A stretch of 36,262 nt of DNA. It comes from a virus. Lineage: Duplodnaviria; Caudoviricetes. Both the position numbers and the translations under genes were made by a program. Location of the stretch: positions 1 through 36,262 of the IMG/VR virus record IMGVR_UViG_3300037502_001229. One strand, 5' to 3'. Below, in pieces: positions 3,057 through 17,244 of the stretch (positions are counted from its first letter, which is position 1; each line of letters opens with the position of its first letter). Below the pieces are notes generated by a model. The model was not told where the DNA came from. It saw only the letters and a program-made list of their open reading frames with translations, and ran no database searches.

Positions 3057-3329
3057 TTAAAAGGGCACATCTGAGTCGAGATCATCAAACGCATCTGGCA
3101 CAGGGCGTGCTGCGGCTTGTTTAACGGGCTTTTGAGGCGCTTTTTCTTCCTTTGCCTTGACAGACAAGCTGAGAAACTTTTTTCCCGTCTTTTCGCTTGT
3201 TTTAAGCCACGCAGAAATCCAAAGATCAGTACCGTTTACGTTGATACTTCCCTTGTAGTCTGGATGGTTGTCGTTTTGTTTATCGTCGTTTTTAAACAAC
3301 GCACCACGGTTTGTGTTGTCATATTGCAT
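3057..3329 (-). CDS. Putative single-stranded DNA-binding protein
   Basis: GALFKN...PDYKG...W.SAW fold motif plus acidic C-tail DDLDSDVPF; located in the recombination operon. Confidence 0.75.
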   Translation of the reverse strand: MQYDNTNRGALFKNDDKQNDNHPDYKGSINVNGTDLWISAWLKTSEKTGKKFLSLSVKAKEEKAPQKPVKQAAARPVPDAFDDLDSDVPF

Positions 3330-3330
3330 T

Positions 3331-3615
3331 TCAGTTTCCTTTCAGTTTGTATATACGAATTACCCTTGCATGTGCTTTTGGGTGGGTTGCTTGCGTGTAG
3401 CCAACAGCCTGGAAGTCATCACCCCGAAAGATGGCCCCCCATACGTTTGGGCTAAAGTGCTCTGGTAGTTCGATTTGTTCACGAACATCATTGATCGTTA
3501 CAAATCCATGTTTTTGTGCATAGCGAATTGCTGCTTTTCTGGCTTTCTCAATCCATTCCTCGCGGCCAATGGACACAAGGGCAATTCCAGCATCACGAAG
3601 TTTTCGGCCGTTCAT
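3331..3615 (-). CDS. Hypothetical protein (possible winged-helix)
   Basis: 94-aa ORF, coupled to neighbours. Confidence 0.7.
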   Translation of the reverse strand: MNGRKLRDAGIALVSIGREEWIEKARKAAIRYAQKHGFVTINDVREQIELPEHFSPNVWGAIFRGDDFQAVGYTQATHPKAHARVIRIYKLKGN

Positions 3616-7510: not shown

Positions 7511-8071
7511 ATGAAAAAAGTCGATTTAGTCGGTAAAATTTTTGGCGACTTAAAAGTTATTTGTTTTGCAGATAAAAAAGGCAATAAAGTTAGATGGCTT
7601 TGCAAATGTAAATGCGGCGCTGAAAAACCTATCTATGCCACACATTTAACAAGAGGAAATTCGACAAGTTGCACGCCGGGTGGAGGGCATGGCATTGGCA
7701 AAAAAATTCCGGGGTATAAAAGTTGGAGTGCGATGATTGCCAGATGTACAAACCGCAATCATGTTGCGTATGACTCTTATGGTGGCAGGGGCATTGTAAT
7801 TTGCGATAGATGGCTGGCTTCGTTTGCTAACTTTTATGAAGACATGGGGCCAAGACCATCCGGAAAGACTCTAGATCGTATTAACACAAACGGAAATTAC
7901 GAGCCATCAAATTGTCGATGGGCAACATCTAAAGAGCAGCAAAACAATATGCGCTCAAACAAATTGGTAGTTATTGATGGGATTGAATCAACAATTTCAC
8001 TGCATTCAAATCGTTTAAAAATTAACTACAACACTCTTTATTCACGTTTAAAACGAATTGGAGCAATTTGA
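7511..8071 (+). mobile_element. Free-standing HNH homing endonuclease
   Basis: WLCKCKCG, YGGRGI.IC.RW, F.NFY.DMG.RP...LDRIN.NGNYEPSNCRWA; AT-rich, with its own promoter. Confidence 0.9.
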
Positions 8072-8634
8072 TGCAAGAAAAAAAATGCAAAGTTTGTGGT
8101 TCCGCTTTTGTTTTGGTTAGGCCGTTACAGCGTGTGTGTTCTGCGATTTGCGGATTAGCCCATGCAAGGCAAGCAACAGAAAAAAAGAAAGCCAAGGAAG
8201 CCCAAGAAGACCGTAAGAAGACCCGAGAAAAGCTAGACGCCATGAGGACTAAGCCCCAACTGGTGAAAGTCGCTCAAACGGCGTTTAATGCGTTTGTAAG
8301 GGTTAGGGATTCTGACAAGCCTTGCATAAGTTGTGGTAAAAAAGCAACAAACGAATCAAACAGCACAGACGCCGGACATTTCCGGAGTGTTGGTTCTGCG
8401 CCACACATGAGATTTGTCGAGGATAACTGCCATGGCCAATGTAAACACTGCAACCAGTACTTAGCCGGGAACGTCCTTGCATACCGAAAAGGACTGATTG
8501 AACGGATCGGTTTAACCAGGGTAGAGCAAATCGAATCCGATCAGACCGTGCGAAAGTACACCAAAGAAGGTTTGCAGGAGATCGCCAGGCACTACAACGC
8601 AGAAGCTAGAAGGCTAAAAAAAGATGCAAAATAA
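8071..8634 (+). CDS. ninG: NinG/Rap-family recombination endonuclease
   Basis: CKVCG, CSAIC, AFNAFVR.RD...CISCG, DAGHFRS, NCHGQC..CN. Confidence 0.88.
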   Translation: MQEKKCKVCGSAFVLVRPLQRVCSAICGLAHARQATEKKKAKEAQEDRKKTREKLDAMRTKPQLVKVAQTAFNAFVRVRDSDKPCISCGKKATNESNSTDAGHFRSVGSAPHMRFVEDNCHGQCKHCNQYLAGNVLAYRKGLIERIGLTRVEQIESDQTVRKYTKEGLQEIARHYNAEARRLKKDAK

Positions 8635-8664
8635 TTGCAAAAAAATCTTGCAACGATGTAAAAT
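8635..8664 (+). promoter_or_regulatory. Late-operon promoter
   Basis: TTGCAA-18 nt-TAAAAT immediately after ninG. Confidence 0.65.
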
Positions 8665-8670
8665 AAACAC

Positions 8671-8905
8671 ATCCGCGCTGGCGATGTAAAAGGCCAGCAT
8701 CATCATGATGGGGTTCACTGTTTGGCAACGATACGGTAAGTGGTGCGCTACCCGCCGACAGTGCCCCACCATGATGGTAAGACGAACTCCGGGGATTCTC
8801 GGAGAGTCAACAACGTGAAGCACGGTACTAGAGAACGGGGAAGCGCGAATCACCCGGAAAGAGTCGATCAATCCGTGTTCTTGTCCACAAAGCGGCGAGG
8901 CCATC
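8671..8905 (+). ncRNA. Candidate structured ncRNA / late leader
   Basis: Four consecutive stem-loops in the longest non-coding stretch of the genome (see findings). Confidence 0.6.
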
Positions 8906-8931
8906 AACCATTTAACCCAAAGGAGTAACCC

Positions 8932-9060
8932 GTGAAAACCCTATTCACAATCGCAGTTCTGTTCTTTTCTTTCGCAGTCCAAGCCCAAACCACAACCAGG
9001 TGTGTAAAGAATTGGGATGGAAGCTACACCTGCACCACCACTCGAAACGGTGGGTTTTGA
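8932..9060 (+). CDS. Small secreted peptide (42 aa; signal peptide plus 24-aa two-Cys mature part)
   Basis: RBS AAGGAG, GTG start; MKTLFTIAVLFFSFAVQA-QTTTRCVKNWDGSYTCTTTRNGGF; TGATG overlap with the next gene. Confidence 0.75.
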   Translation: MKTLFTIAVLFFSFAVQAQTTTRCVKNWDGSYTCTTTRNGGF

Positions 9061-14703: not shown

Positions 14704-17244
14704 ATGACCTTCAGCTTCGTTAGCCCAAACATCACCCAAAGTGGCACTGATACAGTCACCGCCGCCACCGCCGCGCCAACGGGTACGACAAAAACAACTC
14801 GCGGGAATTTTGCGACGTTCAGCACAGGCACGAACAATCTGACCGTAAACGGCACGCTCACGATCGATTCGACAAGTGCCATATTTCAAAACAACAGCAA
14901 CCAGATTCTGACTATCAACGCTGGCGGTGAGTTGATTGTAAATGGCCAAAAGACAACAGCGGCCAACGGCCCACTGTCTCAAGTTGGCTTGAACTGGCTG
15001 AACAATACTTACAGCACAACCACATTTGTTTTGGCAAGCACCAACCCTGCAAGCCCTGCAAAATTGACCGTCAGAGACGCATCCATCGCGTTTGGCTCTG
15101 GTTACCTAATTGTCCCGACAAACAACCACGGCATTATCACAACCCAAGGAGATCGTGTTTGGTTGCTGTCTGCTAACTTTGACTCTGGCAACGGTGAGCG
15201 CGGACGCCTACGGATTCAACAGCAAAGAGCAATCAACTTCCAAGCCAACAAAACCTATGTCGGTGTTTGGCTTAATATCTCCGTCAACCAGTATTCACTG
15301 AAAGGCTACACGCCCGTCGATATTGATGGCCCTGAAATTGGCTACGCCACAGGAGCAACTGTCATTGACATTGAAGATTACGATGCGACCTATGTAAAAG
15401 GCTTGGCTTACCCAAACGTGTCTTTTACGCTGTCAGCCAACCCGCATTTGAAATTAAAAAACAACCTTCGCGGCACGAACGAAGCATGGCGATCAATGTT
15501 GTTTGGAAACACCAGATACAACGTGGTCGAGTATGTCAAAGGCATTTCGGCAAAAGCTCAAGACGCTGTCGGCGCTTCACTCAGTGATGGCACATTGTAT
15601 TTTCAACCAGTTGGTACAAACGTGCCGGGGATTCGATCAAACGTCGAAACGTCCGACATTACCTTTGATTTGTCGCTCCAGACCGCCACGTTTGTAAGCG
15701 GAGCAGCGTCAAAGGATTTTGTATTTGCTTGGCAATTCAGCAACGCCAACGCCACCAACATTACAACTTCGCGCTATTTCTGCACTGGTCAAACCCCTGG
15801 CGCTGAAACGCACACAATTTACTCAAGCCGCTACGGGTACGACAAGCAAAGCGTCCTCGTCAATCTTTGGGGTAACGGCTCTGCGAATCCGATATTCACT
15901 CATGTAAGCCTTCCAACGACTAACAAAGTGATTGCCAACGCCGCAGCCATCACTGGCGTGGCTTTCAATTTCTCAACGAAAGTGATTTCAGTCACGGGCA
16001 CTTTGACAATCCAACAGATTTACGATGCCTATCAGTACCAACTGAATCAGACCGCAAACCTGCAAACGCCTGACGAATGCACGGTGTCAAACGGTCAAAC
16101 CTATTATGTGGGATGGTCGATCAACAACACAGGCACGATTAACGCAGGAACCAACCTTCGCACAATTCGCGCTGAGACAGTCACCAACAGCGGAACAATT
16201 ACGGCTGTTTATACAACCACCGCTGGCACGTCCAAGATACTGCAAATCAACGGAGTTACCAACGGGTCGTCTTTGTACGTGGGCAACAACGCTACGGGCA
16301 TTACAACCCTTTACCAAGCCAACACAAACCAAGCCACGTATCAGGTCTACTTTGCGCCAGGCACGACCCCAGCGCAGTTGGTGGCCCGTGAGTTGTACCG
16401 ATTCCAACGCTTTGCCCAAGTCCTTACTTTGGCCGATGGTTTGAATGTAATCAACTTGGCGGACGTTGAAGACGTTGGCATCACCCAAACCACACTGGCC
16501 ACGGTGCAAGCCTATACCGCCATTGAAACTGCCAGCAAGTTCTATGACAGGACGGCAGCATTTAGACTGACCGAGCAAGGCATCAAGCTAGGACAAATCG
16601 CCACTCGCTCCGGCACCAGCATTGAAATCGGCACATTCAACCATGTGATTAACCAATCCGCTGCTTCGGTGTACTCCATCACCAGCGGCACGATTACGAC
16701 AAAATCCACCTCTTACGCTGGTGATTCCAAATACACCACGGAAGTTGCCACACCTCCTGCAACAATCACGGCCAACAGTACAGAGGTGATTACGATTGCC
16801 ATCGAGGATGCAAACGGAAACTCGCAACTGACGATTAACGGCGGTGACGGAACATTCCAACTCTGGAAGGTTACGACCTCCACCCCAACCGCTGATTACG
16901 CCACCGGAACCTTATTGGCGACTGTCGGAAACGTAACATATCGCTTCATCGGTGTGACAGGATTTGACATTATCGGCGTGGACATTAACTCCAACATCCG
17001 CCGCCGAACATCAATGGCCAAAGGTGTATATACACAAGCCTTCTACGTGGGCGACCAGATCCAACTTGCCCAAGCCCCTGAAATCACGGAAATCAACACC
17101 AAAGTCGATATTTTGCAAAACGCTGTTGATGCTTTGGGCACACCAATTCAAGTGGGCGATGTGGTTGACTCCAACATCATCAAAGTCAACGATGTGTTTG
17201 TCGATGGAACTGGTACGCAATCAGATCCATGGGGGCCAGTCTAA
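14704..17244 (+). CDS. Large Thr/Asn/Gly-rich beta protein, probable virion fibre or decoration
   Basis: 846 aa with beta-strand composition and C-terminal DGTGTQSDPWGPV; function inferred only. Confidence 0.6.
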   Translation: MTFSFVSPNITQSGTDTVTAATAAPTGTTKTTRGNFATFSTGTNNLTVNGTLTIDSTSAIFQNNSNQILTINAGGELIVNGQKTTAANGPLSQVGLNWLNNTYSTTTFVLASTNPASPAKLTVRDASIAFGSGYLIVPTNNHGIITTQGDRVWLLSANFDSGNGERGRLRIQQQRAINFQANKTYVGVWLNISVNQYSLKGYTPVDIDGPEIGYATGATVIDIEDYDATYVKGLAYPNVSFTLSANPHLKLKNNLRGTNEAWRSMLFGNTRYNVVEYVKGISAKAQDAVGASLSDGTLYFQPVGTNVPGIRSNVETSDITFDLSLQTATFVSGAASKDFVFAWQFSNANATNITTSRYFCTGQTPGAETHTIYSSRYGYDKQSVLVNLWGNGSANPIFTHVSLPTTNKVIANAAAITGVAFNFSTKVISVTGTLTIQQIYDAYQYQLNQTANLQTPDECTVSNGQTYYVGWSINNTGTINAGTNLRTIRAETVTNSGTITAVYTTTAGTSKILQINGVTNGSSLYVGNNATGITTLYQANTNQATYQVYFAPGTTPAQLVARELYRFQRFAQVLTLADGLNVINLADVEDVGITQTTLATVQAYTAIETASKFYDRTAAFRLTEQGIKLGQIATRSGTSIEIGTFNHVINQSAASVYSITSGTITTKSTSYAGDSKYTTEVATPPATITANSTEVITIAIEDANGNSQLTINGGDGTFQLWKVTTSTPTADYATGTLLATVGNVTYRFIGVTGFDIIGVDINSNIRRRTSMAKGVYTQAFYVGDQIQLAQAPEITEINTKVDILQNAVDALGTPIQVGDVVDSNIIKVNDVFVDGTGTQSDPWGPV

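Follow-up and report, generated by a model that had tools for sequence, protein, structure and literature searches.

The locus and its phage

The window, by which we mean the whole stretch of DNA that was analysed (36,262 nt), is a complete phage record with direct terminal repeats. It encodes a P22-type head, NinG (8068-8634), a ParB-methyltransferase and the terminase genes. An 846-aa ORF without PHROG or Pfam matches lies between the portal and scaffold genes (14704-17244). Searches with PHROGs and with PF06530 did not find Q in the complete genome, in agreement with an earlier note on this DNA that had described the phage as lacking Q. Relatives of the coat protein at E <=1e-50 number 6,994 among the 8,000 scored, and one of them is labelled Limnohabitans sp. 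The stretch is present in 20 of the 24 listed sequencing runs, mostly from freshwater, with one on record as RNA; three RNA-labelled runs gave contigs of 151-171 nt only (read length), which do not speak to expression or to the ends of the RNA, and one metatranscriptome covers the neighbouring genes as well. We infer that the host is a freshwater betaproteobacterium; a sample of 300 Gammaproteobacteria genomes returned one weak NinG match and nothing that points to a host.

The features discussed below follow the NinG gene:

8635..8664, plus strand: sigma70-type promoter (-35 TTGCAA, 18 nt, -10 TAAAAT; 9 of 12 matches), from which transcription would start near 8671
8677..8698, plus strand: H1, a short separable hairpin module outside the conserved core
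8699..8778, plus strand: H2, a long hairpin of the precursor that takes up the 5' strand of P1 in its base; its structure is conserved, its sequence is not
8772..8910, plus strand: conserved core RNA, a four-way junction of 139 nt including A-CCA
8772..8778, plus strand: 5' strand of P1, acceptor-like, pairing with 8900-8906 or with 8699-8705 in H2
8781..8808, plus strand: P2 arm (H3 of the earlier note), with a 3-bp stem, a bulge or internal loop and a variable hairpin; two of the three basal pairs show compensatory changes
8809..8819, plus strand: J2/3, a linker that is conserved and single-stranded in the alignment
8820..8878, plus strand: P3 arm (H4 of the earlier note), a 6-bp stem around a near-invariant 47-nt domain; five of the six stem pairs show compensatory changes
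8830..8856, plus strand: interior of P3, with an AG-rich bulge (8830-8835), a helix (8836-8839/8853-8856) and a 13-nt loop (8840-8852)
8880..8899, plus strand: P4 hairpin, which abuts P1 directly, in the position of a T-arm; four of five pairs show compensatory changes
8900..8910, plus strand: 3' strand of P1, one unpaired base and CCA (8908-8910), where conservation stops
8932..9060, plus strand: gene for a 42-aa protein of unknown function, a neighbour only, after the Shine-Dalgarno-like AAGGAG at 8920-8925

The sigma70 promoter that had been proposed ahead of the RNA is thus matched by a sigma70-like site, and relatives, whether or not they carry the RNA, have a similar promoter-like sequence in this position. 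The 42-aa protein has a hydrophobic N-terminus and two invariant cysteines, gives no match in Pfam or PHROG, and is encoded at 73 IMG/VR loci of this phage group. A terminator-like hairpin (9038-9053) falls within the last codons of its gene.

Structure and conservation of the core RNA

The plus strand of 8671-8905 folds with a minimum free energy of -87.6 kcal/mol (z -2.9), and none of 200 shuffled sequences folded as well; the minus strand has a z of -2.3. The four helices drawn in the earlier note (H1 8677-8698, H2 8699-8778, H3 8781-8808 and H4 8820-8878) are all found where it had placed them, but its list lacked P1 (8772-8778/8900-8906), the hairpin P4 (8880-8899) and the A-CCA end (8907-8910). 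In the alignment of six distinct sequences, similarity between homologues begins at 8772 and ends at 8910, and RNAalifold, applied to the plain MAFFT alignment, returns a four-way junction of P1, P2 (H3), P3 (H4) and P4. The helices of the structured RNA proposed for this site are therefore real; however, the conserved unit is not the one first outlined but the 139-nt junction at 8772-8910.

Homologues were sought among the neighbours of NinG and with short conserved motifs. The element occurs in eight IMG/VR contigs and three metagenome contigs, and the six distinct sequences are that of the window (the RNA is identical in L003 and L212) and those of L005, L020, L095, L101 and L216. Following HMM and context checks, the pattern scans gave 1 of 2, 6 of 11, 8 of 9 and 3 of 11 true matches, the rest being due to chance; three further scans (51, 53 and 104 loci) added no new sequence, and none of nine GTDB matches to one exact pattern, which divergent copies could escape, was true. 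Five more homologues are known as spurious gene calls only (P0122-P0126). The independent lineages number only about four, as one downstream leader is common to three of the six DNA homologues. The five records searched for a second copy of the core held none, blastn of phage and plasmid collections produced short chance matches only, and a covariance model gave no match in two genomes and no real match at the Aeromonas phage ST4 locus. A gut-phage group with two short core motifs was rejected, as it reads as coding sequence.

Covariation, which the earlier note had named as a check, is present in the core: across the six distinct homologues, 13 of 30 pairs have changed on both sides. Overall, 94.4% of 180 cells are paired, a value that none of 500 shuffles reaches, and controls in which the core structure was slid along the alignment have 35-43% of cells paired. 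Based on six related sequences and a structure derived from the same alignment, this count is strong but is not equivalent to an R-scape test. In P1, 97.6% of the cells are paired, with one pair changed on both sides and two on one side; L101 has 11 nt more in its P2 arm. The inner helix of P3 is a prediction without covariation support, since its sequence never varies, and in the ungapped centre of the core 48 of 59 columns are invariant. Folded singly, four of the six homologues form the same four-way junction, and all six keep P1 and P2. Taken together, these observations leave us in little doubt that a structured RNA exists at this locus. The P2 loop and the apical loop of P3 could also form a short loop-loop pairing, although its register is not constant.

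It had also been considered that the 62-aa ORF at 8740-8928 might be conserved as protein instead, but this ORF carries no coding signature. Its variants include two synonymous and eight non-synonymous ones, variable columns fall evenly on the codon positions (4/20, 4/19 and 3/20), and a 2-nt indel occurs in four of the six alignment rows. Protein matches to the ORF share the core stretch alone, and their starts and ends differ.

Leader modules and genomic contexts

H1 is found alone in other contexts, Aeromonas phage ST4 has it in its RNA/tRNA region, and at the position of H1 the homologues have other short hairpins instead. H2 has kept its structure: its stem is unbranched with 18-31 pairs in five homologues and has about 17-20 pairs, as read from the fold, in L101. 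Its sequence, however, is only 36-55% identical between pairs of homologues, compared to 68-93% for the core. In all six precursors 4-7 nt of the 5' strand of P1 are paired within the base of H2, with a predicted probability of 0.56-1.00 that was reached by 1, 0, 2, 0, 3 and 1 of 40 shuffled leaders, and closing P1 instead of H2 is calculated to cost 4-12 kcal/mol. The conserved alternative pairing in these predicted folds is that of H2 against P1.

The suggestion that the RNA has two exclusive folds survives in this form, but not through the pairing originally put forward for it, between 8789-8798 and 8847-8857. The complementarity is present, but it is not conserved: the ensemble probability of the duplex is 0.001 for the window sequence and 0.000 for the remaining five, and a long version of it is possible in three of the six. 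Similarly, GCGCT (8745-8749) does complement AGCGC (8842-8846), as a kissing interaction would require, but GCGCT occurs within H2 in only two of the six homologues. The duplicated motif CGGA(AA)GAGTC is present in two copies in the window, but the first copy differs in the other five alignment rows, and two copies arise in 4 of 100 shuffles.

Among the 73 loci with the 42-aa gene, six contain the RNA and 67 do not; the covariance model, run on 67 of the 73 loci, gave three distinct matches. The RNA was found in none of 50 further related phage records, 22 of which are at least 90% complete. Two complete sisters of the window phage, whose coat proteins are 91-92% identical to that of the window, have neither the RNA nor Q, and Q was found in none of the five sisters tested. 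The RNA is optional. At the corresponding site, the relatives L019 and L021 have nothing but the promoter, L395 has one hairpin, and in L369 modules of the H1/H2 type precede another RNA.

The contexts of the core differ among the homologues. In the window, L005 and L020 it lies in a late leader. In L101 it is located about 400 nt behind a strong promoter-like site, in a pL-type leader that heads an operon with RecT and YqaJ genes, and the core of L216 lies in a leader similar to that of L101; the distance from the promoter-like site to the core is about 110 nt in the window and about 390-400 nt in L216 and L101. The L095 core belongs to a 90-kb phage, in whose record the window coat protein has no match, and lies 210 nt behind the genes for tRNA-Pro and tRNA-Met. 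These varied contexts show that the RNA has moved between phage groups and that it is tied neither to late genes nor to packaging. A role in place of Q, in late timing or in packaging had been envisaged for it; however, sisters that lack Q lack the RNA too, the RNA is optional in these sisters, and some homologues reside in an early leader of the pL type or follow tRNA genes. This argues against the RNA being a substitute for Q and against the other two roles alike.

Ends, relatives in kind and possible functions of the RNA

The core ends like a tRNA. N-CCA follows a P1 stem of 7-8 bp in five of the six homologues and N-CC in all six, the end of L216 being A-CCT; in the homologues known from protein calls only, a CCN proline codon stands in the CCA register in four of five, and P0122 has no CC there. 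In the three predicted folds examined, P1 and P4 would stack into a helix of 12-13 bp (7+6 in the window, 8+5 in L095 and 8+4 in L216). Other features of a tRNA are missing: P4 has a variable loop of 8-9 nt and no canonical 7-nt T-loop, P3 encloses 47 nt, with neither a 7-nt anticodon loop nor a tag frame, and ARAGORN makes no tRNA or tmRNA call over the core. An identity as an 8/4 or 9/3 tRNA was rejected, since such tRNAs keep the anticodon arm (Mukai et al., PMC5389517) and the core does not fit them. In a lake allele (run X6), H1 and H2 are kept and 8782-8910 is replaced by about 48 other letters, with the junction right after CCA, a weak case of one contig at a depth of 5.3 whose shorter side spans 20 letters. 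In a second contig, a different hairpin ends directly before 8911. The CCA could alternatively be a linker, because AC(C/T) also trails other leader hairpins and similar sequence occurs at sites free of the RNA.

Our tentative preference, held at somewhat less than even confidence, is for a processed, tRNA-ended stable RNA that would act in trans, comparable to RNA C and RNA D of phage T4, and whose maturation would be gated by H2. The analysis shows the fold, the ends, the overlap of H2 with P1 and the independence of context, and these points speak for the proposal. The RNA is likely cut out of the promoter leader and would work free of it, via a protein or tRNA partner at the invariant loops. 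Host RNA polymerase would transcribe the leader, and H2 would fold first and hold the 5' strand of P1, so that the precursor would not yet be tRNA-shaped. H2 would then be cut, most likely by RNase III, a guess from the length of its stem, and the 3' strand of P1 would displace H2 and close P1, which could stack on P4 to form an acceptor/T-arm-like helix of 12-13 bp. RNase P and 3' trimming may subsequently release the mature RNA, and the same cuts would free the downstream mRNA. Processing by RNase P has been described for several phage regulatory RNAs (PMC4919922); here the enzyme would be hindered until H2 is cut, because the 5' leader stays paired in the P1-closed precursor. In the last and weakest step, a host factor might bind to a tertiary surface made up of the invariant P3 domain and J2/3. 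The phage likely benefits only under certain conditions, for instance when facing a host defence or a translation block, and this would account for the absence of the RNA from most sister phages.

A candidate for the partner is the elbow of tRNA. Lehmann et al. (PMC3664808) define the tRNA-elbow platform by AGNNA and UGNNA, with an extra base between positions 4 and 5 of AGNNA in the L1 stalk, and a review (PMC4919913) considers the double T-loop motif worth seeking in viral RNAs. The P3 domain resembles the apex of T-box stem I in that an AG-rich bulge, a short helix and a large apical loop follow in the same order and AGNNA is present: the bulge before the short helix reads AGAGA in five of six sequences, and all six have AGAG-x-A, in which x is an extra base like that of the L1 stalk. 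The single variable base sits at this extra position, but purine-rich words of this kind easily arise by chance. In contrast to the T-box apex, the second motif is CGNRA rather than UGNNA in all six sequences (the apical loop of P3 has CGCGA or CGCAA, and UGNNA occurs in J2/3 in two of six only), the context is that of a phage, and neither a T-box-type specifier loop nor an antiterminator was recognised in the core. Since the U is missing from the loop motif in all six, the domain cannot be assigned to the double T-loops, and a platform of similar kind that binds the tRNA elbow is a lead with a slim chance of being correct.

The closest systems in kind are T4 RNA C and RNA D and the STnc100/PasD RNAs, and the core RNA is a member of neither. 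T4 makes RNA C (species 1) and RNA D (species 2), whose role is unknown, from its tRNA region (PMC3014915); they too are small phage RNAs of 119-139 nt, and RNA C has several arms with the last hairpin next to the 3' strand. However, RNA C possesses a true T-arm loop, which the core RNA does not, and two homologues, when searched with blastn in 50,697 phage records, T4 included, gave short chance matches only. STnc100/PasD (RF02076), for which a phage origin has been described (bioRxiv 10.64898/2026.05.13.724894), likewise has several arms and is carried by prophages, and in its Rfam consensus the last hairpin directly adjoins the closing stem, but cmscan matched it to none of the six homologues, and its members are described as base-pairing regulators, whereas no target was found here. 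Lambdoid late leaders also yield small RNAs, e.g., StxS (PMC7547250). With Rfam 15, cmscan reports no match in the window at the gathering threshold, none over the core at E up to 10, and none at five homologous loci at E up to 5, in keeping with the earlier note, whose author had recognised no known family. A search of the open literature found no description of the core RNA and no match to four core motifs, although it could be an unnamed entry in large candidate lists: the available text of Fremin et al. 2023 (PMC10690425) contains neither core motifs nor contig ids, and the RNA may be among its 10,006 candidates. We think it probable that the core RNA is undescribed.

The first alternative is a cis-acting antiterminator like put of phage HK022, in which the nascent RNA would stay on RNA polymerase and let it read through downstream terminators. 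The shared features are a position in promoter leaders, a phage without a recognised antiterminator protein for the operon (the window genome lacks Q), invariant loops suited to a protein-binding surface, H1 and H2 as two adjacent hairpins, and terminator-like hairpins downstream, at 9038-9053 in the window and about 25 nt after the core in L101. However, put measures about 65 nt, consists of two hairpins and has to fold during its own synthesis (PMC8632103). What is conserved in the present RNA is a 139-nt junction that would be kept masked in the precursor; H1 and H2 are conserved neither in sequence nor in size, and no conserved double hairpin of the put type was found. The RNA is also absent from most sisters. 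None of the 50 related records (including the 22 that are at least 90% complete) has it, all five tested sisters lack Q as well, and it is missing from 67 of the 73 loci with the same downstream gene; its CCA-like end would also be left unexplained. We consider this reading unlikely.

The mutual exclusion of H2 and P1 in all six sequences, with folds 4-12 kcal/mol apart, would also suit a switch that senses a ligand or protein, in which binding to the core stabilises P1 against H2 and alters expression of the next gene. The core interior is near-invariant and purine-rich, as is typical of aptamers. Nevertheless, neither predicted fold, both ending at 8910, touches the Shine-Dalgarno sequence at 8920-8925 or makes a terminator, and a fold run further downstream has no conserved pairing to the Shine-Dalgarno site. 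The downstream genes are unrelated among the homologues, and L369 keeps both a hairpin of the H2 type and a helix that competes with it, the RNA behind the hairpin being a different one. A switch is therefore a decidedly unlikely explanation.

The same compact multi-helix fold, with its invariant centre (48 of 59 columns) and one copy beside tRNA genes, where phage ribozymes are known to occur, could belong to a new class of catalytic RNA, self-cleaving or not, that would process its own leader and be kept off in the precursor by H2. This appears improbable to us, as no Rfam ribozyme matches at E up to 5-10 and the closed, acceptor-like ends suggest processing from outside. Resemblances to hatchet, hairpin and group I intron cores were rejected by eye on strand order or closing pairs. 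It is less probable still that the element is a structured, near-neutral leader module, or one that acts at the level of DNA and spreads by recombination between leader cassettes. Its rare and patchy occurrence and the make-up of the leaders, which appear to be strings of swappable modules, agree with this view, but the loops are invariant across unrelated phages, and the compensatory changes include G-U pairs and thus point to RNA.

Small cloverleaf-like phage RNAs that are matured by RNase P are known in the antisense RNAs c4 of P1/P7 and CI of P4, whose shape the core RNA shares, as it would their processed ends, but an antisense RNA that pairs its loops with a phage mRNA, as c4 does with ant mRNA (PMC12197685), is the least probable reading, since the core has no Rfam match and no common complementary site in the five own phage records searched (one of them, G004, 29% complete, and the L216 record left out), with 0, 1, 2, 0 and 0 complementary 12-mers against 0.2-1.3 expected and none of 17 invariant 7-mers having a complement within 1.5 kb in more than two of the five records.

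If the RNA is indeed a processed one, then the conserved precursor hairpin H2 predicts an ordered path of maturation. What stable phage RNAs like T4 RNA C and RNA D do is an old open question, and the present family offers a compact case for it, with clear boundaries, an invariant domain to mutate, and natural plus and minus alleles at one site. Were the P3 domain to bind tRNA or a defence protein, this would constitute a new RNA route by which phages protect or steer host translation. The modular make-up of the leaders also makes it likely that more RNA families exist at such sites.

Several other stretches near these loci appear structured. In L369 (1700-1995, G005), the same promoter and H1/H2-type modules precede a different structured RNA of about 150 nt without an Rfam match, whose first helix likewise competes with the base of H2, and L018 has a different structured-looking intergenic stretch after ninG (3070-3400). 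In the phage that carries the L095 copy, a long structured and apparently non-coding sequence lies upstream of tRNA-Pro and tRNA-Met (L413, 900-1690, G003). Three tRNAs of Aeromonas phage ST4 (OR261032.1; L331, 1990-3080) are preceded by about 1 kb of structured and mostly unannotated sequence, which holds the H1 module and a sub-threshold match to STnc100 (39 bits, E 1e-5). The pL-type leaders of L101 and L216 share, in the approximately 400 nt upstream of the core, more RNA modules than the core and H2.
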